DNA of 64,000 bases from Candidatus Omnitrophota bacterium (GCA_023819375.1 JAMWDI010000006.1:35730-99729), one strand, 5' to 3'; numbered from the stretch's first letter, positions 5,408 to 21,408 are shown. Made by a program: numbers and translations. Notes: a model not told the origin generated them from the letters alone.

Positions 5408-7158
5408 TTTTCTTTAATAGCATCAAAAAAACATATTTCTTTGCACATTCCACATCCGTTACATAAAATATTTATTTCTAAAATTTCTTTATTTTGAATT
5501 ATTGCAGGACAATTGAGTTCTAAACATAACTTACACTTTTTACAGATATTTTTGTCTATATAATAAATCTTTTTTTCTTTATTGGAAATTTGAATACATT
5601 CTCTTTTAAAAATAATAACTTTTACACCCCTTTTTTCTTTGAATTTTTCTATTTCTTTAATGGATTTTTTAATCTTATAAGGATCAATTTCAATGACATT
5701 TTCAACACCACATCCTTCAATTAATTTTTTCAAATTTATTTCAATAGTTTTTTCCTCTTTAGCAGTTATTCCTGTTCCTGGATGAGGTTGATACCCAGTC
5801 ATAGCAGTTGTTCTGTTGTCAAGTATTGCGATAATTTGATTTGATTTGTTATAAACTGAATTTATAAGTCCAGGAATTCCTGCGTGAAAGAAAGTAGAAT
5901 CTCCTATTATTGAAATAACATATTTTTTTTCAAATTTTGCAATGCCACTCCCAATCGAAATTCCAGAACCCATACATAGACAAGTATCAATTGTTCCAAA
6001 TCTTACACCAAGGGTATAACAACCAATATCACCTGGATAAATTGCATCTTTCCCAAAAACTTTTTTCAAAATATAAAATGAACCCAAATGGGGACAACCT
6101 GGACATAACAAAGGATTCCTTTGAGGTAAAGAAAAAGCAAAGAATTTTTTTTGTTTTTTAGTTAAAGATACTTCTATTTCTTCAACTGACAATTCCCCTT
6201 CTTTTTTAACATCCCCGCTTAATTTACCACAAATTTTTAAATCAGGATTATATTTTTTTGAGCAAATATAAACAAATTCCTCTATAACAGGGTCTCCTTC
6301 CTCAAAAATGTATACTTTTTTTAATTCTTTCAAAAATTTTCCCAACTTTTTTTCTGGAATTGGATAAGTACTAACTTTAAAAACAGGGTAATTTTTATTT
6401 TTTATATCCATAAATTCTTTGGTATAAATATAACCCAGACCAGATGCAATAATTCCTATTTTCCCTTCTCCTTTCTCAATCCTATTTATTTTTAATTTTT
6501 CAATATCTTTTTTGATTAATTCTATTTTCTCATTTAATTTTTTTATTGCTTTTCTTACATTTGTTGGAACCATAACCAATTGTTCTGGATTTTTAATAAA
6601 ATTTAAACTTAAATTTTTTCTTTTTCCCCTTTCACCTATCAAAACATCGGATTTTCCGTGAGACAATCTTGTTACACTTCTTAAAATTACAGGAATTTTA
6701 TATTTTTCTGAAAATTCAAAAGAAAATGAGGCTAAATCTTTTGCTTCTTGTATAGTTGATGGTTCAAAACATACAATCCTTGCAAAACTTACATATCTTC
6801 GTGAATCCTGCTCATTTTGAGATGAATGAGAAAAAGGATCATCAGCAACAACTATTACTAATCCTCCAATAATTCCAGTATAAGCAGATGTTAAGAGGGC
6901 ATCTGAAGCTACATTTAAACCAACATGTTTCATAATAGCACAACTTCTTCTGCCAGTTAAACTTACACCATACGCGTTTTCAAAAGCAACTTTTTCATTG
7001 ATACTCCATTCAATATATACATCATCATTTGCAATTGAAATAAGATATTCAGTTATTTCTGATGAAGGAGTTCCAGGATAAGCAAATGAGGCGTCAATCC
7101 CCCCTTCATAAAGTCCATAAGCAATTGCTTCATTTCCAAGTAAATATTTTACTTGCAT
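5404..7158 (-). CDS. iorA: indolepyruvate:ferredoxin oxidoreductase subunit alpha
   Basis: 584 aa. TPP-enzyme N-terminus (LLGNEAIAYGLYEGGIDASFAYPGTPSSEI), GDSTFFHAGIPGLIN, and a C-terminal 2x[4Fe-4S] region (CKKCKLC...CNGCGMCKEIC). Confidence 0.9.
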   Translation of the reverse strand: MQVKYLLGNEAIAYGLYEGGIDASFAYPGTPSSEITEYLISIANDDVYIEWSINEKVAFENAYGVSLTGRRSCAIMKHVGLNVASDALLTSAYTGIIGGLVIVVADDPFSHSSQNEQDSRRYVSFARIVCFEPSTIQEAKDLASFSFEFSEKYKIPVILRSVTRLSHGKSDVLIGERGKRKNLSLNFIKNPEQLVMVPTNVRKAIKKLNEKIELIKKDIEKLKINRIEKGEGKIGIIASGLGYIYTKEFMDIKNKNYPVFKVSTYPIPEKKLGKFLKELKKVYIFEEGDPVIEEFVYICSKKYNPDLKICGKLSGDVKKEGELSVEEIEVSLTKKQKKFFAFSLPQRNPLLCPGCPHLGSFYILKKVFGKDAIYPGDIGCYTLGVRFGTIDTCLCMGSGISIGSGIAKFEKKYVISIIGDSTFFHAGIPGLINSVYNKSNQIIAILDNRTTAMTGYQPHPGTGITAKEEKTIEINLKKLIEGCGVENVIEIDPYKIKKSIKEIEKFKEKRGVKVIIFKRECIQISNKEKKIYYIDKNICKKCKLCLELNCPAIIQNKEILEINILCNGCGMCKEICFFDAIKEK

Positions 7159-7176
7159 AAGAAATTAATTATACAA

Positions 7177-8622
7177 CTATTCTTTTTTCTTGAAAATATA
7201 CATTTCAACCAGATAATAATACTCTCTTTTTCCTTTTAATTTGCTTAAAAGTTTTTCATTAAAGATAAATTTTTCTTCATAGATTTTTTCAAAATTTAAT
7301 TTGAAAAAATTCTTTACTCTTTCAGATACTTCAAACCTGTTTATATTATCAAGGATAAGAAAAAATCGTGTTTTGTTCTTTGCTAAATCACTTATTTTTT
7401 TAAAATCTTCTTCGTTTTCTATCTCAATTATTTGATTTTTACCATGATAATACCACTGGATTGGTGCCAAAATATTTTTGTCAATATTTTCTGTTGTAAA
7501 TATTAAATCCCCCTCTTTTTCAAATTTCTGTATTTTTTCATATATTTCTTTATATGGAATTAATTTACTGGCATCCTGATATTGAAAAGGATCATTGGAA
7601 TAGTAAAAGTAGAGAGACGGCATAAGAGTTAAAAAGAAAAAAAGTGAAAATCGGCTTTTTTTATTTAAATTTTCAAGCCCTAAACTATAAAACAAAAGAT
7701 AAAAGATAGAAAATGGGATTAAATTTTGAGGAACTGTTGAGGGAAAAAAAACAAGAATTAATGGGAGAAAAAGAGAAATTATTAAAATCCATTTTTTTTC
7801 ATCGTTTAATTCCCAAAATGATTTCAAACAAAAAGGAATTAAAAAAAGATAAAATAAAAAAATGGGAACTAATATTTTAAAATTGAAAGGATTTATAGTT
7901 TCTCCAAGGAAAAAATAGAAAAGAGTATAAGGAAATCTAAGAATTATAGGAACAGGTCTTCTAACACCAAGAGTAAAAATAATTTGATAAGGGATTCTTA
8001 ATAACCAAGGAAAATAGAATATCAAGATTATTAATAGAGAAAATAAAACAGTTAAGTCTAATTTTCTAAGTATAATTAATGAAAGAATCTGTATCAAAAT
8101 CACAATGAAAGCAAGATTATGAGTATATAAAAGTAAAATGTTAAAAATGGCAAGGTTTATTAAAAAAATTTTTTCTTTTTTTTCTATATAATTTAAGAAA
8201 GAGATAAAAGATAGGATCGTTAAAAATGTAAATAAGGTATAGGACTTAATGATTTGAGACCATAAAATTAAGGGAGGACTTAAAGAGATAAAAAGTGAAA
8301 GAAAAAGACCTGTTTTTTCATTTTTGAATTTTTCTCCTAAAAAATAACTGCTCGGGATGCACATTATACCAAAAATTAAAGGTAAGATTCTTAAAATAAA
8401 TTCATTTTTACCAAGTTTTAACCAAAAATGAACCATTGCATAAAATAAAGGGGGATGTGCATCATTAAAAGTTATATAATCAATCATCCATCTTATTGAA
8501 TGTTTACCGAGAGAAATTGCAAGTAATTCATCACACCAAAAAGAATGTTTTCCAAGATTGAAAATTCTTACGAAAATACCTATCATTAATATTAAAAACA
8601 AAAAAAATCTCTTATTCATCAT
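7177..8622 (-). CDS. GT-C fold membrane glycosyltransferase (GT39/ArnT/PMT-like), copy 1
   Basis: 481 aa and polytopic. The first loop carries a CDEL acidic motif (HSFWCDELLAISLG) followed by DAHPPLFY, as in ArnT/PMT_2 proteins. A soluble C-terminal domain is present. Confidence 0.65.
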   Translation of the reverse strand: MMNKRFFLFLILMIGIFVRIFNLGKHSFWCDELLAISLGKHSIRWMIDYITFNDAHPPLFYAMVHFWLKLGKNEFILRILPLIFGIMCIPSSYFLGEKFKNEKTGLFLSLFISLSPPLILWSQIIKSYTLFTFLTILSFISFLNYIEKKEKIFLINLAIFNILLLYTHNLAFIVILIQILSLIILRKLDLTVLFSLLIILIFYFPWLLRIPYQIIFTLGVRRPVPIILRFPYTLFYFFLGETINPFNFKILVPIFLFYLFLIPFCLKSFWELNDEKKWILIISLFLPLILVFFPSTVPQNLIPFSIFYLLFYSLGLENLNKKSRFSLFFFLTLMPSLYFYYSNDPFQYQDASKLIPYKEIYEKIQKFEKEGDLIFTTENIDKNILAPIQWYYHGKNQIIEIENEEDFKKISDLAKNKTRFFLILDNINRFEVSERVKNFFKLNFEKIYEEKFIFNEKLLSKLKGKREYYYLVEMYIFKKKE

Positions 8623-9388
8623 ATTTTTTCAAAATTACAATTATACTTTTTTCAACAAAAAATTTCCATAAATTTAAAAGGTTGAATTTTTTCCCAGTAA
8701 ATTCTTTTATAGTTAAAATTTTTAAAATTTTAAATCCAGAAAAGTAAGCCAATTTTGAAATAGAATTTTTATCAAAATGATAAATCTGAACCGGTAGATG
8801 TAAGATTGATTTACTCTTTTTTGTGAAAGAAAATAATTTAGCAATAAAAAATAAATAATTTGAATGTAATGGTGTTTTTATAATCAAAATTCCATCTTTT
8901 TCTAAAAGTTTTTTACATTTTTGTAAATAATTTACCGGTTCCTTAATATGGGCAATTACATCCATCATAGTTATTATATCAAATTTTATTTCAAAATTTA
9001 GATTTGAAAGATTTCCTTTGAAGACTTTAAACCCTTTTTGGGAACAGAATTCTATCGCAAAATCAGAAATATCCTGCCCATAAACTTCATAACCAATTTC
9101 ACTTGCTAAATCAAGTAATATTCCAATTCCGCACCCTACATCAAGTATTTTTCCTTTTGATGGGATTAACTTTTTAATTTTCTTCAGAATTTTTTTAAAA
9201 TATTTTTTTCTTTCCTGATAAAACTCAATATACCATTTTTGAAAATAAGAACTATCATACAAATTTTCAACTTTAACTATAGGATATAAAAATTTTACAT
9301 AACAGTTGGTACACTTATAAATTTTATAATTTCCATCTTCCCAACTTTTATAAATTCTTCTACTTTTACACAAAGGACACTCAATCAT
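8612..9388 (-). CDS. class I SAM-dependent methyltransferase with N-terminal Zn-ribbon
   Basis: 258 aa. CPLC...CTNC zinc ribbon, followed by SAM motif I ILDVGCGIGILLDLA and motif-II-like DIITMMDVIAH. Confidence 0.75.
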   Translation of the reverse strand: MIECPLCKSRRIYKSWEDGNYKIYKCTNCYVKFLYPIVKVENLYDSSYFQKWYIEFYQERKKYFKKILKKIKKLIPSKGKILDVGCGIGILLDLASEIGYEVYGQDISDFAIEFCSQKGFKVFKGNLSNLNFEIKFDIITMMDVIAHIKEPVNYLQKCKKLLEKDGILIIKTPLHSNYLFFIAKLFSFTKKSKSILHLPVQIYHFDKNSISKLAYFSGFKILKILTIKEFTGKKFNLLNLWKFFVEKSIIVILKKYDE

Positions 9389-10856
9389 TTTTTCTTTTAT
9401 ATATCTTAAAATTATCTATTTCCCTATCAAAAGTGAATCTTTTATCTAAATACTTTTTTATTTTGGGATACTTTTCTATTTTGTAAAAACTCATATTTAT
9501 TAAACTATTGTCAGTTGCATCAATAAAAAGTCTAATGTTGTAAATTTCAAGTTCCTGCAAGAAAATATTTAAAGCAGGTTGATATTGGTGTATAGAAGGT
9601 GGATGGACAAAATTTTCTCCAATGACAGGATCAAGTATTATAAATCTTGTTCCAGGTTCTCTATTTGAAAGAAGGTATATTTTAGGATTAAAGCCCCAAA
9701 CAATAATTTTATCATCTTTTTTTGTGTTTTTTTCAATATAATCAATAATTTCTGAATATTTTTGAATTTCAAATTCTTTTTTCCATTCTCTGTTTTTTAT
9801 AAAACAAATCCATCTTTTGTAATAATCCAGTCCGTGCCAATAAAATACTGATTGAAGTATAGAAAAAAATATCAAAATATTTAAAATTTTCGTTTTTTCT
9901 TGTTTACTTATAAAATTCCCATATCCAATTATTCCTACAATAATTGATAAAGTTAAAAATGGAACATAATGATGTGGAAATGGAAGTCCATGAATAGCAC
10001 CCCATAAAAAAGTAATAAACAATAAAATAAGAAGGTCTTTTACTTTTTCATTTTTATTTCTGAAGAAGTTTATCCCAAATATTAAAAGAAAAGGATTCAA
10101 AAAGTAAATCCTTGTGATCATAGGGAAAATAAAATATATTTTTTTGATAACATTAACACTAGAAGTTAGAAAAAGTGGATATTTTATATTCCATTCAATC
10201 CATTCATAAATTATATTTTTTTGAAATAGGTATGCAAGAAAACTTATAAAAGGGATAAAGCAAAACACAAATCCTACAATGGTTTTGGTCAGATTTTTAG
10301 TTTTTAAAAATACTAAAAAAACAAAAGAAAAAATTAACAATATACCAAACTGTTTTAAAAAAAGAGAAAGGCCAACTAAAATACTTGATAGAAAAATTGA
10401 AAAGTAATTCTGAGAAAAAAGAATCAAAAACCAGGAAAGTAATACGAGAAAAACAATAATAAATTCTGGCCCTTTATGAACGTCTACTGGATAAAAAAGA
10501 GTACTTAAAACAGGATAAAAAATTAAAGAAAAAAAAGATGCTTTTTTATTTGAATATTTTTCAACAATTTTAAATATCAAAAAAGTATTTACAAAAAGGA
10601 TAAAAAGATAAAAAAGATGAACTGCTAAAAGATAGTTTTCTTTAAAAATTTTTAAAAAGAAATAATAAATATATCCAAGGCCGAATCCTTTATTTTCAAA
10701 TATTTCTCTGTATATCTGTCTTCCTTTTGAAATTTTGTAAGCAACAAGCGCATATTCTGGTTCATCAACATTTGAGAAATAAGGAAAAATGTAAGGAATT
10801 CTAAAGATAAGAGTGAGTAAAAATGAACTAATAAAATAAAAAAAATTTCTTTTCAT
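9381..10856 (-). CDS. GT-C fold membrane glycosyltransferase (GT39/ArnT-like), copy 2
   Basis: 491 aa and polytopic. The first-loop VDEPEY motif is followed by KGRQIYREIFENKGFGLGYIYYFFLKIF. That block is shared with the plus-strand paralogs at 15385 and 17752. The C-terminal domain is soluble. Confidence 0.6.
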   Translation of the reverse strand: MKRNFFYFISSFLLTLIFRIPYIFPYFSNVDEPEYALVAYKISKGRQIYREIFENKGFGLGYIYYFFLKIFKENYLLAVHLFYLFILFVNTFLIFKIVEKYSNKKASFFSLIFYPVLSTLFYPVDVHKGPEFIIVFLVLLSWFLILFSQNYFSIFLSSILVGLSLFLKQFGILLIFSFVFLVFLKTKNLTKTIVGFVFCFIPFISFLAYLFQKNIIYEWIEWNIKYPLFLTSSVNVIKKIYFIFPMITRIYFLNPFLLIFGINFFRNKNEKVKDLLILLFITFLWGAIHGLPFPHHYVPFLTLSIIVGIIGYGNFISKQEKTKILNILIFFSILQSVFYWHGLDYYKRWICFIKNREWKKEFEIQKYSEIIDYIEKNTKKDDKIIVWGFNPKIYLLSNREPGTRFIILDPVIGENFVHPPSIHQYQPALNIFLQELEIYNIRLFIDATDNSLINMSFYKIEKYPKIKKYLDKRFTFDREIDNFKIYKRKND

Positions 10857-10858
10857 TC

Positions 10859-11536
10859 TTAATCAATAAATTTATATTTTATCAAAGTCCATATTGCTTC
10901 AATTCCATCTTTCCATCTTATCTTTTTCCCTTCTCTTATTGATCTTGGATTGTAACTTATAGGAACTTCATAAATTTTATATCCCCTTTTTCTTAATTTT
11001 GCTGTTAATTCCTGACAAAACTCAAATCTTTTACATTTCAAATTAATCCTATCTAAAATTTCTTTTTTAACCATCTTATAACAAGTAGGAGCATCTGTTA
11101 ATTTGGTTCCATAAAGTAAATTTGTTAAAAAAGTAACCAATTTCCCTCCATAATGGAAAACAAATGAAGATTTTTTATTTTTTCCAAGAATTCTTGAACC
11201 AAAAACTACATCTACTTTTTTTTCTTTTATAAATTCAATCATTTTTAACCAGTCAAATGGATTATATTCCAAATCAGCATCCTGTATTACCACAATATCT
11301 CCTGTAATATGTTTAAGCCCTTCTCTTATAGCAGTCCCCTTCCCTTCGTTTTTTTCTTTGAAGATAATCTTTATTCTTTCATCATTAATACTTTGTAAAA
11401 TTTCTTTTGTTCCATCTGTACTTCCGTCGTCAACTATTATTATTTCTTTTTCAACAGGAACTTCCAGAACCTTTTTTAAAATTTTTAAAATAGTTCTTTT
11501 TTCATTATAAACCGGAATGATAACACTTAATTTCAT
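10859..11536 (-). CDS. GT2 glycosyltransferase, polyprenyl-phosphate sugar synthase-like (DPM1/ArnC/GtrB type)
   Basis: 225 aa. Motifs seen: VIIPVYNE, VDDGSTDGT, QDADLEY (DxD), and a C-terminal YNPRSIREGKKI element like the lipid-phosphate-sugar synthases. Confidence 0.8.
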   Translation of the reverse strand: MKLSVIIPVYNEKRTILKILKKVLEVPVEKEIIIVDDGSTDGTKEILQSINDERIKIIFKEKNEGKGTAIREGLKHITGDIVVIQDADLEYNPFDWLKMIEFIKEKKVDVVFGSRILGKNKKSSFVFHYGGKLVTFLTNLLYGTKLTDAPTCYKMVKKEILDRINLKCKRFEFCQELTAKLRKRGYKIYEVPISYNPRSIREGKKIRWKDGIEAIWTLIKYKFID

Positions 11537-11591
11537 TTTTCAATTAAAATTTGTTCTCCTAAGGAAATTATAAAGTGAATACAAATTAATA

Positions 11592-12791
11592 TCAAGAAAT
11601 TTTCAAATAAGTGTTAGGTCTAAAAAATTTCTTAAACAAATCTAATGTATAAAAAAAACCATGAACAGAAAAAATTATATAAAATGGTTCAATTGGTAAT
11701 CTGTATCTTATTGATGCAAGGTAAATCATATGAAATACTGTAAAAATAAAAATCAGTATATGTAAAAAATTTGCTTTTGAATTTTTGAATGAAACAAAAA
11801 AGCCGATTATAAAAAATGGTAAAAGAATCCCAAAGGATGAAATACTTATAATTCTGTATAAAATTTTTTCTTCAAACTCTGGAGCATTGGGGACAATATT
11901 CCAAAATCTTTTAAATTTATTTTTAAGTAGATATAAAAATCTTTTCGGGTTTTTTTTAATTACTTCTATTGTCATTTTATATAAGAGTTTATCTCTTGTA
12001 ATTTCTTCAATTTGATGTATATTTTGGGGGAAATAAGAACAGGGACCTCCATCTGAAAAAGGATTATTTCCTTCCCAGAAAACCCATCCACCCATAGTTG
12101 TTCCTGGAATAAATTTTTTAAAAATTTTGTAATTTCTAATTATCCATGGTGATAAAACTATGCAAAATCCGATAACAAGAAAAAAGACCTTTCTGAATTT
12201 TAATTTTAGATTTTCTTTTAAAAATAACAATTTTAAAATTACAAAAGGAATAAAAATTTGAAAGGTTGGTCTTGTTAGTCCAGCAACTCCACTTATAACT
12301 CCTGCTTTTAAAGATATTATTCCGTTTGTATCACTCAATTTTATTAGATAAAAAATGCTTAAAACAACAAAAAAAAGAAAGAAAGTTTCTGTTAACAAAA
12401 AACCATTATAAAAAATGAAAAAAGGATAAAAAGAAGAAATTATGGCAGAAAGTGTTCCCTCTTTTTTTCCAAAAATTTCCTTTGAGATTTGGTAAATTAT
12501 GTAAACTGTAAAAGTTGAAATTAAACTCTGAAAAATTCTTATATGTAGAAAATTAAACTTTAAATAAAATAAAATACTTAAAATTAAAGGATATAAAGGT
12601 GGCCTAAAACTTTTAAAATTCTCATTTACAATTAAACCCTTTCCTGACAGAAAATTTTTAACCATTTTTAGATATTCAAACTCGTCATCAAAATAAAGAT
12701 AGTTTTTCAAATAAAAGACAAAGGAAATCCTCAAAATAAAACTAAACGATAAAATAAAAACTAAAAATTTTCTTTCAGATATTCTTTCCAT
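11592..12791 (-). CDS. GT-C fold membrane glycosyltransferase (GT39/ArnT-like), copy 3
   Basis: 399 aa. First-loop YFDDEFEY acidic motif and RPPLYPLILS. It shares SPWIIRNYKIFKKF and KRFWN blocks with the 14163 gene, so the two form a paralog pair. Confidence 0.65.
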   Translation of the reverse strand: MERISERKFLVFILSFSFILRISFVFYLKNYLYFDDEFEYLKMVKNFLSGKGLIVNENFKSFRPPLYPLILSILFYLKFNFLHIRIFQSLISTFTVYIIYQISKEIFGKKEGTLSAIISSFYPFFIFYNGFLLTETFFLFFVVLSIFYLIKLSDTNGIISLKAGVISGVAGLTRPTFQIFIPFVILKLLFLKENLKLKFRKVFFLVIGFCIVLSPWIIRNYKIFKKFIPGTTMGGWVFWEGNNPFSDGGPCSYFPQNIHQIEEITRDKLLYKMTIEVIKKNPKRFLYLLKNKFKRFWNIVPNAPEFEEKILYRIISISSFGILLPFFIIGFFVSFKNSKANFLHILIFIFTVFHMIYLASIRYRLPIEPFYIIFSVHGFFYTLDLFKKFFRPNTYLKIS

Positions 12792-13453
12792 ATTTTAAAT
12801 TTAAAAATTAAAAAATTATTATGTCCATAAATTCCGACTCTTTTAATCGTAAAATTGGAATAATAAGTTCTTCTAAATCTTTTAGGTGTCACAAAGGCCT
12901 TTTTATAACCACTTTTCTTTACAATTTCTTCTATTTTTTTATTGAATTCTCCATAAGGATAACAAAAGAATTTTACTTCTTTTCCAAGTTTATCTTCTAT
13001 CATTTTTTTAGAGTTTATTATCTCTTCTTTTATTTTCTCTTCCGATAGTAAAGTGAGATGTGGATGTGTTAAAGTGTGAGAACCAAATTCTACACCATTT
13101 TTAGCCATATCAAAAATTTCTTTCCAGTTTAAAAATCTATCCTTTTCCACACTTTTGTAACGAAGAAAGATTTTATCTGTATTGATATAATTTACTACCA
13201 AAAAAATCAGTGGTTTTATATTCAATTTTTCCAGAAATTCATAAGCAAACCAATAATTGTCTGCAAAACCATCATCAAAAGTTAAAAGGACTTTTTTTCT
13301 AATTTCATTTCCTGTTGATATATATTCATCTGCTTTTAAAAATTTAAATTTTTTAAAAATTAAATACTCTATTTGTTTTTTAAACTCTTCAATATTTACT
13401 GTAAGCGCATCACTCTTATACCAAGGATTAACTCTATGATATGAAAGTACCAT
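12761..13453 (-). CDS. polysaccharide deacetylase family protein (CE4; ArnD/PgdA-like)
   Basis: 230 aa. LTFDDGFADNY (the CE4 TFDDG motif) and GSHTLTHPHL (the His-His metal motif). Confidence 0.8.
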   Translation of the reverse strand: MVLSYHRVNPWYKSDALTVNIEEFKKQIEYLIFKKFKFLKADEYISTGNEIRKKVLLTFDDGFADNYWFAYEFLEKLNIKPLIFLVVNYINTDKIFLRYKSVEKDRFLNWKEIFDMAKNGVEFGSHTLTHPHLTLLSEEKIKEEIINSKKMIEDKLGKEVKFFCYPYGEFNKKIEEIVKKSGYKKAFVTPKRFRRTYYSNFTIKRVGIYGHNNFLIFKFKIWKEYLKENF

Positions 13454-13462
13454 TTTTTGTTT

Positions 13463-14176
13463 TCAAAATTTTATTCTTTTAAATTTATATCTTAAAATAA
13501 GTAGAATCATTTTTAAGCCAAGAAAAAATGCCTTTCTCATACTTCCTGTGACAGAAGATTTTCCAACTCTTGGTTTATAGTTAACAGGGATTTCTATAAA
13601 TTTTGTTCCAGTTTTTATAACAAGTAGCGTTATTTCAGGCCCAAAATGTTCTTTACCGACAGTAAAATGATTTTTTATTTTTTCATATAAGGGTCTTTTA
13701 ATAAGTCTCATTGTACAACCAACATCTGTTAAAGTTGTTGTATTGTAAAGAAATTCCATTAATTTTGCAACAGCCCAATTACCCCATTTTAAAAAGAAAT
13801 TCATATTTGCTCCTTTCCAGATAAGTTCTCTCGTTGTTCTTGTTCCCAAAACATAATCAAAATCATCGCTATAAGCAAGAAGTTTAATAACATCCCTACC
13901 TTCAAATGTTCCATCTGGTTCCGAAATAATTAAATAATCTCCAGTTGCTTCAGAAAGTCCTTTTTGAATGGCAAAACCATATCCCTGTTTTTTTTCATAA
14001 ACAAGACGTGCCTTTGTCTTTTTTACTTCTTCATCAGTTCCTTCAACTGCATTATTGTTTACAACAACTATTTCATCAACATAACCAGATGCAAAAAAAT
14101 CTTCTATTGCCTGCCTTATGGAATCCTTTTCATTGTATGTTGGAAATATTACCGATACTTTTTTATTTTTCCACAT
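13463..14176 (-). CDS. GT2 glycosyltransferase, polyprenyl-phosphate sugar synthase-like, with variant acidic motifs
   Basis: VSVIFPTYNE is present, but VVNNNAVEGTD replaces DDGSxD and SEPDG replaces DxD. The C-terminal YKPRVGKSS element is present. I prefer the ATG at 14176 (MWKNKK); the track ORF starts at a GTG at 14197. Confidence 0.7.
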   Translation of the reverse strand: MWKNKKVSVIFPTYNEKDSIRQAIEDFFASGYVDEIVVVNNNAVEGTDEEVKKTKARLVYEKKQGYGFAIQKGLSEATGDYLIISEPDGTFEGRDVIKLLAYSDDFDYVLGTRTTRELIWKGANMNFFLKWGNWAVAKLMEFLYNTTTLTDVGCTMRLIKRPLYEKIKNHFTVGKEHFGPEITLLVIKTGTKFIEIPVNYKPRVGKSSVTGSMRKAFFLGLKMILLILRYKFKRIKF

Positions 14177-15368
14177 TTTTTTTAAAAAATAAAACACTAA
14201 AAATTATTAGAAATGGTGATAAAGGTTCTCTATATCTTATTACTGTTTTAAAAAAGAGTATTATCGGTAAAGACCAACCAATTATTAAAAAGTATATAAA
14301 TAAAAATTTGCGCCAAATTTTAATATTTTTTAATAATCCTGCAAATCCAAAAAAAATTAAGGGAGTATATGTTAAAAAGCCGATTATAACATGATAGGTT
14401 TTGTAATTTTCTCCAGGCCCAGAAAAAGTATGAGGGTATAATCTCCAGTATCTTTTAAATCTATCAAAAATTAGTTTAAGATACGTTTTAGGATTATTAA
14501 GAATAAAATTTTTTGCTTCTTTATAAAGAGCGTTATTTATTTCTATTTCACTTAAGCCCTCAAATTTTTTAAAGTATTCTAATGGCGGATTCCAATAACC
14601 AGAAGGTTCATTTAAAGAATTAGAATTGTTTGCTATATAACATACTATACCACCCTCAGTTGAGGTAATCAAAAATTTTTTAAAGATTTTATAATTTCTA
14701 ATACCCCATGGAGATATAACTAAAAGGCATGGTATCGTAATTAGAAGGTAATTTTTTAAGAATTTTTCTCTGTAAAATAAAATAAAATATATGAAAAGGA
14801 AAATCAAAAGTATTAAAAATAAACTTCTTGTTAATATACCAAATCCTAAAAAAATTCCACTAATAAAATAATAAAAAATATTGCTATTCTTTTCTCCAAG
14901 CATCAAAAAAAATGTAAATCCGCACATTAAAAATATTTCAAGGGTTACAGGAGCAAGATAACCAGTCCAAAAAATAGATGGTGGATAAATTGAGAACAGT
15001 AAAGCAGATAAAAGCCCAGTTCTTTTATCAATAAGTGTTATTCCAAGGAAATATATAAGAATACAAGTTAAAGAACTTAAAATTGCCAGTCCTATTTTGG
15101 CGGCAAAATAATTATGTCCAAAAATTTTGTAAATAATCGCTAAAAATAAAGGAAAACCTGGGCTTCTCCATGCATAAAATCTCGGCCCATCAGGAAAATA
15201 TGGATTATTTACCCAATATCCTTGTCCTGATGCAATTTTCCATCCAAGTTCATCCCACCAGTCACCCCAGACATCAACGTTATTGTTAAGTGTTAAAATA
15301 AAACCAATTCTTAAAACTAAAGCCCACAAAAAAATTAGAAACAGATATTTTTCATAAGTTTTTTTCAT
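14163..15368 (-). CDS. GT-C fold membrane glycosyltransferase (GT39/ArnT-like), copy 4
   Basis: First-loop WWDELG motif and SPGFPLFLAIIYKIFG. Paralogous to the 11592 gene (SPWGIRNYKIFKKF, KRYWR). I prefer the ATG at 15368 (MKKTYEKY) because the track start at 15425 is a TTG. Confidence 0.65.
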   Translation of the reverse strand: MKKTYEKYLFLIFLWALVLRIGFILTLNNNVDVWGDWWDELGWKIASGQGYWVNNPYFPDGPRFYAWRSPGFPLFLAIIYKIFGHNYFAAKIGLAILSSLTCILIYFLGITLIDKRTGLLSALLFSIYPPSIFWTGYLAPVTLEIFLMCGFTFFLMLGEKNSNIFYYFISGIFLGFGILTRSLFLILLIFLFIYFILFYREKFLKNYLLITIPCLLVISPWGIRNYKIFKKFLITSTEGGIVCYIANNSNSLNEPSGYWNPPLEYFKKFEGLSEIEINNALYKEAKNFILNNPKTYLKLIFDRFKRYWRLYPHTFSGPGENYKTYHVIIGFLTYTPLIFFGFAGLLKNIKIWRKFLFIYFLIIGWSLPIILFFKTVIRYREPLSPFLIIFSVLFFKKNVEK

Positions 15369-15384
15369 GTTAATATAAATTATA

Positions 15385-16767
15385 ATGTTTATTGAAAAAA
15401 AAATAAATTTTAGATTGTTAAACAAGTTTCTAATCCCAATTTTCGGGATTTATTTTTTTCTAATTGTTCCATCAACATTACCAAATTTTTATCCAATGTT
15501 TATTGATTCTGGAACTTATGGATATGTTGCTCAACAAATTAACAAAGGGAAGTTATTGTATAAAGAAATATTTGAAATAAAGTTACCTGGAATTTATTAT
15601 ATTTACGCTTTTTTATTCAAAATATTTACAGATTCAAGATGGGTGCTTTATTTTGTTGACTTAATCCATAATTTCTTAATTTTATTTTTTATTTATCTAA
15701 TTTTTAAAAGAGAAAATTTAATTGATTACTATTGGCTTTTTTCAATATTTTTTATAACTTGTCTTCGTGTTTATCCTTCATATTGTGATGGCAATCTGAA
15801 TGAACACTGGTATTTATTCTTCTTTTTACTTTTTTATTATTTAATTAATTCAGAGAAAAACAAAATAAAAGAATTAATTGCTGGGTTTTCTTTTTCTTAT
15901 CTTTTTTTCCTGAAACAAAATTTTATTTTTTTGAATATTCCTTTGATTTATTTTTTCCGAAAAAAAATGAAAAATTATTTTTTTATTCTTGGATTTCTTC
16001 CTATGACTTTATTTTTCCTTTACATTATAATTAAAAGTTGGCCTGAATCATTAAAAGCAATTTTTCTTTTTCCCTTGAGAAGGTCAGGAGAAGAAAAAAT
16101 GTCTTTAATTTTAAAACTCAAAACTGGAATAATTTATGGTCCCTTTTTGCAGTTTTTAATTCTTTTTATTTTAAGTTGTATTAAAAATAGTAAAATAAAA
16201 AGATTTATCATTTTACAAGGTCTAATTCTTCTTTTTATAACATTTTTTCTTCCTCTTTTTTATATACATTATTTAGTTCTTCTCCTTATATTGACAATCC
16301 CCTCTTTTACAATTATTGGAAAAGAATATCCGAAATATTTTTGCTTTTTTTTGTTGTTTTTTTTAATCTTTCCACCCTTTAAATTTATAAAAATAAGATT
16401 TAAACATTCTTTTAAAGCCCTTAGACTTACTCTTGTTGAAAAAGATTTAAGATTAGCATCACCTCCTATGGCTTTTACAATAATCAAATATCTTAAAGAA
16501 AATGAAAAATTTATAATGATACCTTCATATCCAGAAATTTACTTTATGACTAAAACTGAGTCTCCTTATAGATTTTTTCTTTTAGATGATCTTGTATCTA
16601 AATTTTTCAAAGAAGAGTTTAAAAAAATGATAAAAGAAAGACCGCCTGATTACGTTTATCTTGAAAAAGAAGTTTCCTATTTTGAGAAGGTTTTTTATTT
16701 AGATAGAAGAGAATATGAATTAAAACAAATTGACGAAAATTTATTTAAATTTAAAATTTTACGATAA
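15385..16767 (+). CDS. polytopic membrane protein, GT-C-like (paralog A of the plus-strand trio)
   Basis: 460 aa. IDSGTYGYVAQQINKGKLLYKEIFEIKLPGIYYIYAFLFKIFTDSRW is near-identical in pattern to the 17752 protein. The shared C-terminal block is RPPDYVYLE...FKFKILR. Confidence 0.55.
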   Translation: MFIEKKINFRLLNKFLIPIFGIYFFLIVPSTLPNFYPMFIDSGTYGYVAQQINKGKLLYKEIFEIKLPGIYYIYAFLFKIFTDSRWVLYFVDLIHNFLILFFIYLIFKRENLIDYYWLFSIFFITCLRVYPSYCDGNLNEHWYLFFFLLFYYLINSEKNKIKELIAGFSFSYLFFLKQNFIFLNIPLIYFFRKKMKNYFFILGFLPMTLFFLYIIIKSWPESLKAIFLFPLRRSGEEKMSLILKLKTGIIYGPFLQFLILFILSCIKNSKIKRFIILQGLILLFITFFLPLFYIHYLVLLLILTIPSFTIIGKEYPKYFCFFLLFFLIFPPFKFIKIRFKHSFKALRLTLVEKDLRLASPPMAFTIIKYLKENEKFIMIPSYPEIYFMTKTESPYRFFLLDDLVSKFFKEEFKKMIKERPPDYVYLEKEVSYFEKVFYLDRREYELKQIDENLFKFKILR

Positions 16768-16772
16768 ACAAA

Positions 16773-17747
16773 ATGGGGCAAAAATTTTATTTTGGATTTT
16801 CTGATTATCTTTTACTTGAGGTTGCAAATATTAATTTTTATCAATTACATTTTGATGCTGAAAGCATAGTAAGAGGTTACAAAAAATTAAAAGAAATTGC
16901 TGAGGAACTCAATATAGAACCACCTATTCCACGGATGGCCGGTTTTGCTTATTCACACATTGCTTCACTTGGTGCAAAAATTGAATTTCCAATTGATGGA
17001 GAACCAAAACCGTTTCCTTTAATAAAAAATATTGAAGATATTGATAATTTAAAAGAACCTGAAGATTATTTGAGTGCATCTTTAATACAGAAAAAACTAA
17101 AAACATTATCAGAACTAAAGAGAATTGTTCCTGAAACTCCAAATACAATTGGACATTTATTTGAAGGGCCTATAACAACAGCAGTTTTGCTTATGGGACA
17201 GGATTTTTTTATCCTTGTTTACGATAATCCAAAAAAGGCGCATAAATTACTTAAATTTTGTGTAAGAAGTGCTTTAAATTATTCAAAATGTATATTAAAT
17301 TATTTTGGAGAAGAGTTGAAAGAAGGTCCAAAAGGAATTCCTGATGATTTTGCAGGTATTTTACACCCAAAACTTTTTCCTGAATTTGTTTTGCCTTACT
17401 GGGAAGAGATGTATGAAAGATTAAAGGCAACCGAAAGACATTTACATAGTGAACTATTAAGAGAAGAACACTTAAAATTTCTAAAAGATGTGAAAATTGA
17501 TGTTTTTGATCCTTCTGCAGACCAGTATTTAAATGGAGAAATTTTGTTAAAGAAATGTCCTTGTAAATTTACTTTAAGAATTCAATCTTGGGAAATTTTC
17601 AATCTATCTGCAGATGAACTTGAAAAATTATATATAAAACTTGCAAGTTATAAACCTATCTCTATAAATTTTTATTTAGATAGATTGATTGACTTACCTA
17701 AGATAAAAAGACTATTGAAAATAGCAAGAGAATTAGAGAAAAATTAA
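16773..17747 (+). CDS. uroporphyrinogen decarboxylase (URO-D) / MtaA-CmuA-like family protein
   Basis: 324 aa. The block DDFAGILHPKLFPEFVLPYWEEMYERLKATERHLHSE...IDVFDPSAD follows the URO-D-fold pattern (D-x-a-g-l-s-p-x-f-x-e-f-v-l-P-y ... lH-x-c ... d-v). The assignment rests on this motif only. Confidence 0.45.
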   Translation: MGQKFYFGFSDYLLLEVANINFYQLHFDAESIVRGYKKLKEIAEELNIEPPIPRMAGFAYSHIASLGAKIEFPIDGEPKPFPLIKNIEDIDNLKEPEDYLSASLIQKKLKTLSELKRIVPETPNTIGHLFEGPITTAVLLMGQDFFILVYDNPKKAHKLLKFCVRSALNYSKCILNYFGEELKEGPKGIPDDFAGILHPKLFPEFVLPYWEEMYERLKATERHLHSELLREEHLKFLKDVKIDVFDPSADQYLNGEILLKKCPCKFTLRIQSWEIFNLSADELEKLYIKLASYKPISINFYLDRLIDLPKIKRLLKIARELEKN

Positions 17748-17751
17748 ATAT

Positions 17752-19158
17752 ATGAAAATAAAAATTGAACATTTTTTTAGTTTTTTGTCCATCATTTATT
17801 TTTTAATTGTTTCTTTTCCTCATATTCCTACCTATAATAATATGTCTATTGATAGTGGTATTTATGCATATATTGGTCAACAGGTAAATAAAGGCAAAAT
17901 TTTGTATAAAGAGGTCTGGGATTATAAATTTCCTGCCATCTATTACATATATGCATTTCTTTTTAAAATTTTCCCAGATTCAAGATGGACATTATATTTT
18001 ACAGATGTTTTTATTCATGTATGTATGTTAATCTTAATATTTTTAATTTTGAAAATTTTTGAAAAAAGAGATTATTTCTGGATAATTTCTTTTCTCTTTA
18101 CCACAACTTACAGAATTTATCCTTGTTTTAGTGGGGGCAATTTAGCAGAACATTTCTTTTTATTTATATCTTTTATTTCTTTATATTTATTATTTAAAAA
18201 ACCTACAAAATTTTTTGATTTTACTCTTGGCAATTGTTTTGTCTGGATGTTAATGTTCAAACAACCTTATATTTTGATTGTGTTAATAATATTCTTATTT
18301 TTTAAAGATAGAATTTTAAAGGGCGAAAAAAAATTCTTCTTTTGTGGTTTTCTATTATCCTTTTTATTCTTTATTTGTGTGTTTTTAAAAGGAGCCCCTG
18401 AAAGTTTCGAAACGGTGACATTTCCTTTTAAAGTTACAAAAGAGAGTAATTTTATAACTTTAAATACTTTGAAAAACTTTTTAAATAACCTTGAGTATAA
18501 AATAAGGATAATTTTATTTGTTGGTCCAGGAAAGCAAGTCCTATTATTTTTACCTATTTTTTTCTTTGTAAAAGATAGATTAAAATTTCTCTTTTTTTCT
18601 TTATTCCTTTCTTTGCTATTTATTTATTTGACAACTTTCGCTTTGTACGCACATTATATACTTTTATTAAACATTTTAATTTTATTAGGGAGTATTATCT
18701 TGATAAAAAATTATCCAAAAAAATTTGCTTTATTTTTCCTTATTTTATTTACTTTATGGCCATTAACATTAATTAAAAAAAGGTTTATACATTCCTATAA
18801 TGCCTTTTATAAATTTTTTGTTTTGAAAGACCACAGAATAAGAGTATATCCAATTGTTTTTACTGTTGCAAAATATATTAAACCTAATGAAACTCTTTTT
18901 ATGATACCTGATTATTGTGAAGTTTATTTTATATTGAAAATTGAAAGTCCTTGGCGATTTTGTGGAATTGGACAAGGAATCCCAAATTATCCAAAATTTA
19001 AAAATGAATTAAAAAAACTTATTAGAGAAAAACCTCCTGATTATTTTTATCTTGAGATTTCAATTAAAGAATTTGAAAATATTTTTGATCTTAAACCAAG
19101 TGAATATAAGTTAACTTTTCTTGAAAACAATCTTTATAAATTTAAAATTTTAAAATAA
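17752..19158 (+). CDS. polytopic membrane protein, GT-C-like (paralog B of the plus-strand trio)
   Basis: 468 aa. IDSGIYAYIGQQVNKGKILYKEVWDYKFPAIYYIYAFLFKIFPDSRW, with the C-terminus KPPDYFYLE...YKFKILK. Paralog of the 15385 gene. Confidence 0.55.
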   Translation: MKIKIEHFFSFLSIIYFLIVSFPHIPTYNNMSIDSGIYAYIGQQVNKGKILYKEVWDYKFPAIYYIYAFLFKIFPDSRWTLYFTDVFIHVCMLILIFLILKIFEKRDYFWIISFLFTTTYRIYPCFSGGNLAEHFFLFISFISLYLLFKKPTKFFDFTLGNCFVWMLMFKQPYILIVLIIFLFFKDRILKGEKKFFFCGFLLSFLFFICVFLKGAPESFETVTFPFKVTKESNFITLNTLKNFLNNLEYKIRIILFVGPGKQVLLFLPIFFFVKDRLKFLFFSLFLSLLFIYLTTFALYAHYILLLNILILLGSIILIKNYPKKFALFFLILFTLWPLTLIKKRFIHSYNAFYKFFVLKDHRIRVYPIVFTVAKYIKPNETLFMIPDYCEVYFILKIESPWRFCGIGQGIPNYPKFKNELKKLIREKPPDYFYLEISIKEFENIFDLKPSEYKLTFLENNLYKFKILK

Positions 19159-20291
19159 AAATTTTGATAATTTTCAATCATTTTTTCTACTGAAAAATTT
19201 TTCTTTACTAATAAGTAATTTTTCTCACCCATACTCTTGCAAATTTCAGGATTTTGAAGTAAAAACAAAATTTTCTTTGAAATATCTTCTATATCTTTTG
19301 GTTTAACAAGAAATCCATTTATTCCATCATCTATTATTTCTTTTCCTCCACCATATTCAGAGCATATTACAGGCTTTTTACATGCCATTCCTTCAAGGAT
19401 TAAATTTGGCATACCTTCCCATAAAGAAATAAGAACAATTATATCTGAAATTTTTATTAATTTTGGTAAATCTTGTCTAAAACCTGTAAATATAATATCC
19501 TTTTCCAATCCTAAATTTTGAATTAATCTCTCAAGTTTTCCTCTTTCAGGTCCTTCCCCTACTATCAAGAATTTTACTTCTTCAAATTCTTCTTTAACCC
19601 TTTTGCTAACATATAAAAAGGTTTCTAAATTTTTCTCAAATGACAATCTACCGCCAGTAAGAACTATTTTTTCATTCTCAATTCCAAATTCTTTTTTCAA
19701 ATCATCAAATTCTATTTCGTCTTTCTCATATTTTTCTATTTCAATTCCATTATATATAACATCTACTTTTTCAATACTTGCATTTAACCTCTTTAAATAA
19801 ATGTTTTTAACTTCCTCTGAATTACAGACAATTTTTTTTGTAAATTTTAATAAAATTTTATCTATAAAGAGATGATACCATTTCTTCCATAAATCAAGAC
19901 TCCTTTCAGAAGCAATTATGACAGGGATTTTACATATAATTCCTGCAATTCTACCCCAGAAATTTGAAGTAAACATAAATGTGTGTAAAATGTTTGGTTT
20001 TTCTCTTTTAAGTATTTTTATTAATCGGAAAAGAATAAAAAGATCAAATTTATATTTTTTTTCCAGAATATAAAGTTTTGTTATTTTTTTAAAATCTTCT
20101 TTCATTCTTCCGCTTCTTAAAGAAATTAAAACAGTTTCAAAAATTTTCTTATCTAGATTTTTAATTAATAAATAAAGTTGTTTTTCTGCTCCACCAATTT
20201 GGAGAGTTCCTATAACAAAGCAAATTTTAATTTTCTTTGATGGATGAAATTTTATTTTGTCCTGCCCAGTTATACCACTTTTCAATATCAT
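19134..20291 (-). CDS. GT4 (group 1) glycosyltransferase
   Basis: IKICFVIGTLQIGGAEKQ at the N-terminus and the EGMPNLILEGMACKKPVI (E-x7-E region) at the C-terminus. The first ATG is at 20291; the track start at 20303 is a TTG. The 5' end overlaps the HEAT-repeat gene by about 65 nt. Confidence 0.8.
   Translation of the reverse strand: MILKSGITGQDKIKFHPSKKIKICFVIGTLQIGGAEKQLYLLIKNLDKKIFETVLISLRSGRMKEDFKKITKLYILEKKYKFDLFILFRLIKILKREKPNILHTFMFTSNFWGRIAGIICKIPVIIASERSLDLWKKWYHLFIDKILLKFTKKIVCNSEEVKNIYLKRLNASIEKVDVIYNGIEIEKYEKDEIEFDDLKKEFGIENEKIVLTGGRLSFEKNLETFLYVSKRVKEEFEEVKFLIVGEGPERGKLERLIQNLGLEKDIIFTGFRQDLPKLIKISDIIVLISLWEGMPNLILEGMACKKPVICSEYGGGKEIIDDGINGFLVKPKDIEDISKKILFLLQNPEICKSMGEKNYLLVKKNFSVEKMIENYQNFYFKILNL
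19141..19154. repeat. perfect 14-nt AT palindrome at a convergent gene overlap
   Basis: TTTAAAATTTTAAA is its own reverse complement. It lies inside the 25-nt overlap of the 3' ends of the 17752-19158 (+) and 19134-20291 (-) genes. Confidence 0.6.
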
Positions 20292-21408
20292 ATCCCAAAT
20301 CAATACCTGTTATTTTTTTTAATGATTCTCTTGCAATTTTTTTAAGTTCGTAATTTTCACTTTTTAATAAATTAATCAATGAATAAATAGCTCTTTTGTC
20401 TCTAATTTCACCAAGAGCATAGGCAGAATATTCTCTGATGAGTAAGTGGTATCTGTCATTCAAATTTGATATAAGTGGCAATGTTGCTCTTTTATCTTTA
20501 AAAACTGCAAGGGCTTTTATTGCTTCAAGTTTTACTTCTATTTGTTTATCATAAATTAAATTCAAAATTGGTTCAAAAAATCTTACATTATTAAATTCAC
20601 AGGCAGATTTAATACTTGCAATTTTTACATACCAGTTTGAATCATTTAGCAATTCTATTAAACAAGAAATTGTTCTGGGATTTTTTATTTTTCCAAAAGT
20701 TTCAGCGATCTCTTTTCTTACAAAATTATTCTTATCATTGACAAGTGGAATTAATTTTTCAACATCAACATTTTCTTTTATTTCCCCTATTGACCAAATT
20801 GCATATTTTCTTATTTCCCAATTTTTATCTTTCAAACATTCATAAAGATAAGGAAGAGATTTTTTGATTTTATTTTGTCCAAAATAAATTATTATTTTTA
20901 TTTTTGTGTTATCATCTTGATTTTTGACAAAATTTATTAAAAAATCTATTTCATCTTCATGTTTTGCCAAAATCATAAGGGCTTTTTCTCTAATTTCTGA
21001 ATCTTCAGTATTTATTAAATTTTCAAGAGTTTTTATTCCATTTTTATCGTTCATTTCGTCTACTAACTCAATCATTTTTAATTTTTTCTTTTTTGAAACT
21101 TCTGGATCATTTAGTTTTTCAAAAATATATGGTAGTATGTCAGGACCAATTTTTAACAACGTTTTCTTACTTTCCTCTGAAGGAGTTGTTTTTCCTAAAT
21201 TTTTATCTGCTATAACTGTTTCATCGTCAAGAATATCTAAAAGATAAGGAATACTTTCTCTTATTTCACATTTAAAGTTTCTTAATCTATAAGCAGAGAG
21301 GGCTTTTTTTAAAGCATTGTTTGATTTTAAATTTTCAATTTCTATTTGTAGTTCTTGTGAAAATAAAACTGAAAGAATTGAAAAGAAAATTAAAAAATAT
21401 TTTCTCAT
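20227..21408 (-). CDS. secreted HEAT-repeat (PBS-lyase HEAT-like) protein
   Basis: I prefer the start MRKYFLIFFSILSVLFSQ, which is signal-peptide-like. Its ATG is at 21408, with a GGAGAA-type SD at 21413-21420. The sequence has repeated DxNWxVRxxAxxxLGxI-type units (for example KDKNWEIRKYAIWSIGEI and DSNWYVKIASIKS). Confidence 0.7.
   Translation of the reverse strand: MRKYFLIFFSILSVLFSQELQIEIENLKSNNALKKALSAYRLRNFKCEIRESIPYLLDILDDETVIADKNLGKTTPSEESKKTLLKIGPDILPYIFEKLNDPEVSKKKKLKMIELVDEMNDKNGIKTLENLINTEDSEIREKALMILAKHEDEIDFLINFVKNQDDNTKIKIIIYFGQNKIKKSLPYLYECLKDKNWEIRKYAIWSIGEIKENVDVEKLIPLVNDKNNFVRKEIAETFGKIKNPRTISCLIELLNDSNWYVKIASIKSACEFNNVRFFEPILNLIYDKQIEVKLEAIKALAVFKDKRATLPLISNLNDRYHLLIREYSAYALGEIRDKRAIYSLINLLKSENYELKKIARESLKKITGIDLGYDIEKWYNWAGQNKISSIKEN

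Follow-up and report, generated by a model that had tools for sequence, protein, structure and literature searches.

Extracytoplasmic glycosylation by GT-C enzymes is mostly known from pairs of one synthase and one transferase; the main exception, with many enzymes, is the mycobacterial cell wall. Here, we analyzed a stretch of 64,000 nucleotides from a Candidatus Omnitrophota bacterium (GCA_023819375.1 JAMWDI010000006.1:35730-99729; "the window" denotes this entire stretch), in which a tightly packed block of 11 genes occupies positions 7177-19158. Six of these genes code for polytopic membrane proteins, termed A to F, all of which are predicted from sequence and structure models to be glycosyltransferases of the GT-C/PMT_2 superfamily. 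Interleaved with them are genes for two family 2 glycosyltransferases (GT2a and GT2b), a CE4 deacetylase, a methyltransferase (MT) dependent on S-adenosylmethionine (SAM), and a URO-D-like protein. Judged by these predictions and by analogy to described systems, the locus probably represents an expanded extracytoplasmic glycosylation system of the Gtr or ArnC-ArnD-ArnT type that would run on polyprenyl-phosphate sugars.

In the established three-component scheme, a lipid-phosphate-sugar synthase, a flippase, and a GT-C act together; the flippase can be of the MOP/MATE type, systems with several GT-Cs have been noted, and the serotype-specific Gtr enzymes of Shigella share GtrA and GtrB (PMC11127046). 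Like GtrA-GtrB-Gtr* of Shigella and Salmonella, GacI/J/K/L of Streptococcus, and ORF12-15/GT136 of Citrobacter, the locus studied here has a GT2 synthase gene beside a putatively outward-acting GT-C, and its GT2 proteins match GtrB, DPMS, and ArnC. Unlike these systems, it combines six GT-Cs (three of them core) with two synthases and has CE4, methyltransferase, and URO-D-like genes embedded, and no hidden Markov model (HMM) specific for the three-component families reached its cut-off. It further differs from Gtr in that there is no GtrA/SMR flippase in the window and the GT2 proteins are devoid of transmembrane (TM) helices, while a MOP-type flippase is encoded at 30873-32363.

During aminoarabinose modification of lipid A, the CE4-fold deacylase acts on the lipid-linked sugar at the cytoplasmic face of the membrane. 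The succession GT2b-CE4-C resembles ArnC-ArnD-ArnT in its order of a GT2 synthase, a CE4-fold deacylase, and a PMT_2/GT83-type GT-C, and ArnT was the structure with the best TM-score for both E and B. The Arn models themselves scored far lower than required for orthologs (ArnC, 71 and 27 bits versus 529; ArnT, 28 versus 567). No ArnD model or structure was present among the CE4 matches in NCBIfam and the PDB sequences, and no ArnA- or ArnB-like genes were found among the Pfam results for the window. The likeness of GT2b-CE4-C to ArnC-ArnD-ArnT would hence be one of analogy and not of orthology.

Many GT-C paralogs and few polyprenyl-phosphate donors are also the hallmark of the mycobacterial EmbA/B/C, AftA-D, MptA/B, and PimE sets with their Ppm1/decaprenyl-phosphate arabinose (DPA) donors. 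These build polymer outside the membrane, which for the proteins studied here is a candidate role only. Similarity to mycobacterial GT-Cs was seen at the level of the fold (AftA, AftB, PimE, EmbC), and none of the six window proteins had a Pfam match to the Arabinose_trans, AftA_N, GT87, or MptA_B families. In contrast to the mycobacterial enzymes, they are small (400-490 amino acids [aa]), have no carbohydrate-binding modules, and belong to another phylum. A further comparison is offered by archaeal Agl N-glycosylation (AglJ/AglD, the GT-C AglS, the methyltransferase AglP, and Agl23): both GT2 proteins best match AglJ/Dol-P-hexose transferase, A weakly matches Agl23/TIGR03663, and the cluster also includes a SAM methyltransferase. 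However, the scores are far below the cut-offs (111 versus 325 and 38 versus 126), the host is bacterial, and the window contains no AglB/STT3 oligosaccharyltransferase.

The six membrane proteins and the GT-C fold

The block comprises the following genes, where "core" and "accessory" refer to conservation in related loci, as described below:

7177-8622, minus strand: GT-C A, 481 aa, predicted PMT_2-type membrane glycosyltransferase with a C-terminal soluble domain of ~150 aa; core
8612-9388, minus strand: class I SAM-dependent methyltransferase (Pfam Methyltransf_23/11/31, E = 1e-18)
9381-10856, minus strand: GT-C B, 491 aa, putative divergent PMT_2-superfamily member of the B/E/F group; accessory
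10859-11536, minus strand: GT2a, 225 aa, GT-A enzyme, putatively of the polyprenyl-phosphate glycosyltransferase type (Pfam Glycos_transf_2, E = 1.5e-39)
11592-12791, minus strand: GT-C C, 399 aa, PMT_2, paralog of D; core
12761-13453, minus strand: CE4 (NodB-type) de-N-acetylase, 230 aa (Pfam Polysacc_deac_1, E = 1e-29)
13463-14197, minus strand: GT2b, 244 aa, second GT2 putatively of the polyprenyl-phosphate glycosyltransferase type (Pfam GT2, E = 5.5e-20)
14163-15368, minus strand: GT-C D, 401 aa, PMT_2; core
15385-16767, plus strand: GT-C E, 460 aa, B/E/F group, divergently oriented to D; accessory
16773-17747, plus strand: URO-D/MtaA-like protein, 324 aa (Pfam URO-D, E = 2.6e-15)
17752-19158, plus strand: GT-C F, 468 aa, paralog of E; accessory

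Eight genes are thus located on the minus strand, in the transcription order D, GT2b, CE4, C, GT2a, B, MT, A, and three (E, URO-D-like, and F) on the plus strand. The mechanically predicted open reading frame (ORF) of D extends to a TTG at 15425; since its orthologs have a length of 401 aa, the ATG at 15368 is the likely start.

In hydropathy analysis, all six GT-Cs displayed a basic N-terminus, followed by a hydrophobic helix and many more hydrophobic segments. GT-C enzymes typically have a conserved Asp, often as DD or DE, within the first extracytoplasmic loop after the first TM helix (TM1), and this loop-1 Asp or Asp-Glu is the equivalent of the catalytic residues D55/E56 of ArnT and D77/E78 of Pmt1 (PMC7801869). 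Motifs of this kind were located 5-10 residues past TM1 in every protein: CDEL in A (D31-E32), VDEPEY in B (D31-E32), DDEFEY in C (D35-D36-E37), WWDELG in D (D39-E40), and IDSG in E (D41) and F (D33). Within each of the six families, the loop-1 acidic residues were invariant in all orthologs collected. In C, invariance extended to the motif DDE(F/Y)EY, and in D, VDVWGDWWDELGWK was almost invariant.

Several of the proteins are clearly related to each other. C and D share 31% identity (E = 4e-37) and have SPW(I/G)IRNYKIFKKF in common, and E and F are 39% identical over 455 aa (E = 2e-83). B matched the N-terminal 80 aa of E (E = 2e-8) and aligned with an E/F profile with an hhalign probability of 99.6% over 401 columns. 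The A-family profile aligned with the same E/F profile as well (96.8%, 301 columns), with D31-E32 of A placed on D41 of E.

Against Pfam PMT_2 (PF13231, cut-off 26.1 bits), C and D scored above the threshold (61.4 and 57 bits), E scored below it (21.5 bits), and A, B, and F had no direct Pfam match; PMT_2 membership can thus be assigned directly to C and D and, through the relatives described below, by transitivity to the other four. D additionally matched Pfam STT3 below threshold (20.2 bits versus a cut-off of 24.5) and, weakly, ArnT and LA_3751. For A, 125 homologs were detectable, many of them with PF13231 and under the name "glycosyltransferase family 39 protein" in NCBI records of metagenome-assembled genomes (MAGs). 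Searching 1.84 billion cluster representatives by HMMER with the E/F profile retrieved 21,226 of them at E ≤ 1e-3 and 952 at E ≤ 1e-30, and PMT_2 was above its cut-off in 10 of 10 remote matches sampled. Only ~9 cluster representatives exceeded 270 bits. E, F, and B therefore make up a small, divergent offshoot of the PMT_2 superfamily, which is itself very large.

When PDB sequences were searched, neither the E/F profile nor protein C found a match, and the A-family profile found only a marginal one of 43 residues to AglB. Since no useful PDB sequence matches were available, the comparison was made at the fold level, for which B and E were chosen from the least-annotated group, modeled with AlphaFold2 (B, pLDDT 81.5 and pTM 0.85; E, pLDDT 84.5 and pTM 0.86), and searched against the PDB with Foldseek. 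With both models, a probability of at least 0.8 was reached only by GT-C-fold chains or by the GT-C-related subunit PIG-U, and the unrelated transporters listed below the GT-C matches had probabilities of <0.1. The top 28 matches of B were either GT-C structures (STT3, DPY19, PglB, AglB, ArnT) or PIG-U of the glycosylphosphatidylinositol transamidase, and E matched STT3, ArnT (5f15), AftA, PglB, ALG12/9/3, Pmt4, AftB, and PimE. The highest TM-scores were obtained with ArnT (0.62 for E and 0.57 for B).

These results agree with an initial annotation of the window, which had described six polytopic ORFs with loop-1 acidic motifs, two GT2, CE4, methyltransferase, and URO-D-like genes interleaved with them, C/D and E/F as paralog pairs with B related to the latter, and a GT-C identity for all six. 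Each ORF was recovered at its position, the interleaved genes were confirmed by Pfam/NCBIfam matches, the motifs were as described and could be placed in the first external loop, and both the identities and the profile comparison bear out the paralogy. The GT-C identity is borne out by HMM for C and D, by homologs for A, by AlphaFold2/Foldseek for B and E, and by 39% identity to E for F. HMM and AlphaFold/Foldseek comparisons had been proposed there as a check, and neither showed the proteins to be anything other than GT-C.

The start codons of the divergently transcribed genes D and E are 16 bp apart, and the spacer consists of A and T only. It contains no Shine-Dalgarno-like purine run, and the promoter of each gene would need to sit inside the other gene. 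The divergent arrangement is kept in three related loci (L001, L004, and L005), with a gap of 25-28 bp.

Putative donor synthases and conservation of the module

GT2a and GT2b appear to be of the polyprenyl-phosphate glycosyltransferase type, in line with their earlier description as polyprenyl-phosphate-sugar synthases, which their relatedness to DPMS, ArnC, and GtrB supports. The best NCBIfam matches of GT2a were AglJ, PgfS, ArnC, Dol-P-hexose transferase, and PpgS, all below the cut-offs, and those of GT2b were AglJ, Dol-P-hexose transferase, and PpgS, with scores that likewise miss the equivalog cut-offs by far. Among PDB sequences, GT2a was closest to Pyrococcus PfDPMS (5mlz, 1e-19), ArnC, and GtrB, and GT2b matched DPMS and ArnC; for the two proteins taken together, ArnC was represented by three structures. 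GT2b, in which the DxD position reads E-P-D, is the most conserved gene in the module: its identity among loci is 86-94%, compared with only 45-71% for the neighboring GT-Cs, which indicates an unusually strong constraint on one putative donor synthase.

The CE4 protein contains readable TFDD and H-T-L-T-H (HxxxH) metal/catalytic motifs, and its PDB sequence matches were 6dq3, IcaB (4wcj), and PgaB. Because its start codon is located 10 nt past the GT2b stop, there is no room for a signal peptide; the enzyme, with orthologs of 228-229 aa, is probably cytoplasmic. The methyltransferase has an N-terminal Cys4 zinc-ribbon-like motif and is kept beside A in related loci. For the URO-D-like protein, weak NCBIfam matches to MtaA/CmuA and no match to PDB sequences were found. 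This protein, encoded between E and F, shows 79-83% identity in relatives, well above its GT-C neighbors, and is absent in L005.

Conservation of the array was studied in 37 metagenome and MAG loci, consisting of 30 loci of at least 9 kb from a D-family metagenome scan (50 loci retrieved) and 7 loci found earlier. The order D-GT2b-CE4-C-GT2a-MT-A was present, in full or up to the contig end, in ~24 of the 37 loci and was kept from 33% to 70% identity. Between 3 and 6 GT-Cs were counted per related locus, using HMMs that undercount foreign GT-C families. C was found in all and A in nearly all related loci, F was kept more widely than B or E, and AsnB(-HEAT-GT4a) preceded the module in most cases. 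By this distribution, the conserved core consists of three GT-Cs (A, C, and D), the two GT2 proteins, CE4, and the methyltransferase, and B, E, and F are accessory, the window representing the maximal version of the module among the loci surveyed. The cytoplasmic enzymes were conserved far better across relatives (GT2b, 86-94%; URO-D-like, 79-83%; GDP-mannose 4,6-dehydratase [GMD], 92%) than the GT-Cs (45-71%).

All six GT-Cs occur in the same order and with 56-71% identity in a Ratteibacteria MAG (L005) and in a JGI contig (L001/L044). In another JGI contig (L014; Ga0080004_1116469), six GT-Cs are present with F split into two ORFs; here, indolepyruvate:ferredoxin oxidoreductase genes, which in the window flank the array, are found inside it, between C and GT2a. 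L007 and L008 have four GT-Cs (A, C, D, and F) and have neither B nor E, and L004 has four GT-Cs without B, plus an extra unassigned polytopic ORF of 567 aa. Distant loci, in which A is 33-47% identical, have kept D-GT2b-CE4-C-GT2a-MT-A with other GT2/GT-C pairs added, and in L012, a member of the MptA_B family lies inside the array. The nearest loci belong to Ca. Ratteibacteria and Omnitrophota MAGs, several of them from Tibetan samples, and a "Candidatus Omnitrophica bacterium" MAG includes protein B under the label hypothetical protein. A survey of related MAGs for conservation of the six-gene array had also been proposed in the initial annotation; all six GT-Cs are present in L005, L001/L044, and L014, and other relatives have fewer. 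The accompanying statement that such an array is comparable only to the mycobacterial machineries is overstated: the same module with 3-6 GT-Cs exists in dozens of Omnitrophota/Ratteibacteria metagenome loci, an unrelated locus (L010) has PMT_2 and YfhO GT-C genes, a Wzy_C protein, and two unassigned polytopic ORFs, and three-component systems with several GT-Cs are on record (PMC11127046). No description of the module was found in literature searches on Ratteibacteria/Omnitrophota glycosylation and on PMT_2 arrays.

Three loci contain a gene for an IS200/IS605-type Y1 transposase between C and GT2a (L001:4910-5548, L004:4461-5120, and L013:7308-7964). The junction is exactly the same in all three, although the loci differ in divergence, and the fixed position suggests that an old gene was retained and possibly domesticated, or that the junction is a hot spot of recurrent insertion. 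In the window, there is no Y1 transposase gene but a 55-bp gap (11537-11591), which holds the best sigma-70-like match of the region (11/12 positions).

Candidate mechanism and alternative readings

Family and fold membership, motifs, gene order, and conservation were established by the analyses described above. The most likely function of the module is to build or decorate a glycan of the cell surface, acting from outside the membrane, and outer-face glycosylation, as already proposed for the locus, is the most economical reading. At the cytoplasmic face, GT2a and GT2b would each use a nucleotide sugar to attach a monosaccharide to polyprenyl phosphate. CE4, encoded between GT2b and C, probably N-deacetylates a lipid-linked N-acetylhexosamine and would be the counterpart of the ArnD step, and the SAM methyltransferase may add a methyl group. 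The lipid-linked sugars would then be flipped, perhaps by the MOP/Wzx-type protein encoded at 30873-32363, and the GT-Cs, with their invariant Asp(-Glu) in the first external loop, would transfer them to the acceptor(s) at the outer face of the cytoplasmic membrane. The glycan made by the adjoining GT4/GMD/AsnB genes is the probable acceptor, with an envelope protein or lipid as the other candidates. Within this scheme, the inferred elements are the donors, what CE4 does and where, the flippase, and the acceptor.

Since the synthase pair is fixed while the number of GT-Cs varies, several GT-Cs may be sharing donors, as they do in mycobacteria; in Shigella, it is GtrA and GtrB that several Gtr enzymes share. 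The lineage-variable proteins B, E, and F would most likely reuse the same two donors for further linkages or branches. The locus had been introduced as a candidate assembly line, but sequential action does not follow from the sequence. With the GT-C number changing against a fixed GT2 pair, a conserved core with variable decorators fits at least as well.

Several observations weigh against such a system. With six GT-Cs and two donor synthases, four GT-Cs are left without a dedicated partner. GT2a and GT2b do not have the C-terminal TM helices of GtrB, ArnC, and PfDPMS, no small GtrA/SMR-type flippase was found among unannotated ORFs of at least 50 aa in the whole window, and the MOP protein is encoded 12 kb from the array. 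By sequence, CE4 is nearest to extracellular PgaB/IcaB-type deacetylases and not to ArnD. Moreover, the lowest Foldseek E-values of B and E were those of oligosaccharyltransferases (STT3, PglB, AglB), which use pyrophosphate-linked donors. None of the module proteins reaches an NCBIfam equivalog cut-off, and therefore no sugar or acceptor can be assigned; the model for all members is built on sequence and predicted structure.

Rather than contributing to a joint product, the GT-Cs could modify the envelope independently of each other, each transferring to an acceptor of its own (lipid A/lipopolysaccharide core, lipoproteins, S-layer or pilin proteins, or polysaccharide). GT2b-CE4-C would then be an amino-sugar lipid-modification unit whose triplet mirrors the logic of ArnC-ArnD-ArnT, and the remaining proteins would be Gtr- or PMT-like decorators. 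The weak ArnT match of D is compatible with this, as is a variable GT-C number beside a fixed GT2 pair, which recalls the serotype-specific Gtr enzymes with their shared GtrA/GtrB (PMC11127046). We nevertheless consider independent action unlikely, if still a serious alternative: the seven core genes strictly retain their order and occur together over a wide range of identity, which argues for a joint product, no ArnA/ArnB-type genes are present in the window, and all ArnC and ArnT scores fall well short of the equivalog thresholds.

A joint product could also be more ambitious than decoration by a Gtr- or Arn-type system. Core, AsnB amidotransferase, and B, E, and F might together form a mycobacteria-like machinery that polymerizes or branches a major envelope glycan entirely on the outer face, using lipid-phosphate monosaccharides that include a de-N-acetylated (amino) sugar and a methylated sugar. 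Taken as a whole, this proposal is about as doubtful as independent action.

The low Foldseek E-values of B and E with STT3, PglB, and AglB raise the question of whether some members, chiefly B, E, and F, are in fact oligosaccharyltransferase-, ligase-, or polymerase-like. A pyrophosphate-linked oligosaccharide made by the adjoining GT4 enzymes and flipped by Wzx would then be transferred as one block, with protein, lipid, or a growing chain as the recipient, and the adjoining cluster, with its four GT4 genes and Wzx-like flippase, would supply it; among the window ORFs of at least 100 aa scanned with Pfam, there was no Wzy, WaaL, or PglB that could take this part. A match of D to STT3 (GT66), below the cut-off and the only one among the six proteins, is a further point in favor. 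The resemblance to oligosaccharyltransferases is, however, at the fold level only: none of the six GT-Cs has a WWDxG motif in its C-terminal part, large C-terminal domains are absent, the highest TM-scores of B and E are to ArnT, and all remote relatives sampled are PMT_2 and not STT3. The same Pfam scan detected no initiating phosphoglycosyltransferase, and close relatives that have retained the GT4/AsnB genes do without B and E. We regard en bloc transfer as improbable, even more so than independent action. We consider it very improbable that several of the six are catalytically dead paralogs serving as scaffolds, chaperones, or flippase-associated proteins. TIGR03663, which A weakly matches, is named "flippase activity-associated protein Agl23," and A, B, and F have no direct Pfam match, but every family has invariant loop-1 acidic residues along with many further invariant positions, and a full GT-C fold is confidently predicted for B and E.

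Surroundings of the array and significance

Outside the block, the window contains the following features:

919-4786: flanking housekeeping genes for the LarC nickel-insertion protein, YajC, and a LonC-type protease
4853-7158: indolepyruvate:ferredoxin oxidoreductase genes flanking the array
19134-20303, minus strand: GT4 glycosyltransferase (Pfam; NCBIfam stp2-like match below cut-off)
20227-21495, minus strand: HEAT-repeat protein (Pfam), its hydrophobic N-terminus resembling a signal peptide as read from the sequence
21425-23314, minus strand: AsnB-type amidotransferase (Pfam; NCBIfam XrtA/PEP-CTERM amidotransferase-like match below cut-off)
23314-32363, minus strand: cytoplasmic glycan genes, namely, three GT4, GMD, sugar-1-P nucleotidyltransferase, two radical SAM, and the MOP/Wzx-type flippase
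30873-32363, minus strand: MOP/Wzx-type flippase (Pfam), the only flippase-like gene in the window
35039-36643: fusion of ThuA (trehalose utilization domain) and a GFO/IDH/MocA oxidoreductase in a single 534-aa protein
46529-47233, plus strand: PIG-L/BshB1-like de-N-acetylase, converging on the following gene
47225-48571, minus strand: neutral/alkaline ceramidase-like gene, converging on the preceding gene
60862-63641: far-end genes for CdhD (delta subunit of carbon monoxide dehydrogenase/acetyl-CoA synthase) and a pterin-binding protein (both within 60862-63077), and for DUF3786

Within the adjoining glycan cluster, GMD passed its equivalog cut-off (gmd, 419 bits versus 415). The pair of radical SAM genes at 28552-30889 codes for one protein like the B12-binding HpnJ/PhpK group and one that is SPASM-domain maturase-like. 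The HEAT-repeat protein and the AsnB-type amidotransferase accompany the module almost always, an association that hints at amidated uronic acids in the product and at a periplasmic HEAT-repeat partner. At the far end, CdhD and the pterin-binding protein fit the earlier remark that the organism is a Wood-Ljungdahl anaerobe, and the flanking genes are consistent with an anaerobe of this type.

The locus had also been called markedly more AT-rich than the housekeeping genes, based on two 60-nt spot counts. These counts were arithmetically correct (16.7% and 36.7% GC) but unrepresentative, as the GC content was 24.7% for the locus, 25.4% for the adjoining glycan genes, and 28.2% for the remaining window. 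At third codon positions, GC (GC3) was 0.16-0.20 in the locus and 0.12-0.16 in housekeeping genes. Third positions thus do not account for the lower GC of the locus; it arises at codon positions 1 and 2 and reflects the Phe/Ile/Leu/Tyr/Lys/Asn-rich composition of membrane proteins. A foreign origin by horizontal transfer, as might be read from the low GC, was rejected because GC3 in the locus equals or exceeds that of other genes. Scans of 7000-20500 returned 105 promoter-like sites (87 ± 10 expected) and 1 terminator-like site (4 expected), and both are uninformative in such AT-rich DNA.

The protein families of the array are already known, with some public records labelled "GT39 family," and multi-GT-C systems are known from mycobacteria and have been noted elsewhere. 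What is new is the recognition, in a candidate phylum with an unstudied envelope, of a compact, conserved multi-GT-C module that has a probably cytoplasmic CE4, a methyltransferase, and a URO-D-like protein embedded in it, as well as the small divergent branch formed by B, E, and F. The module is found in an uncultured, thermophile-associated hot-spring lineage (Omnitrophota/Ratteibacteria) without envelope biochemistry and bears on the surface composition of these bacteria. It offers small proteins (400-490 aa) with which donor sharing among GT-Cs can be tested, and it allows one to ask whether ArnD-like deacetylation of lipid-linked sugars occurs outside the Arn pathway. If the mycobacteria-like machinery considered above were true, its product would be a cell-envelope polymer that has not been described before and that characterizes the Omnitrophota/Ratteibacteria lineage.

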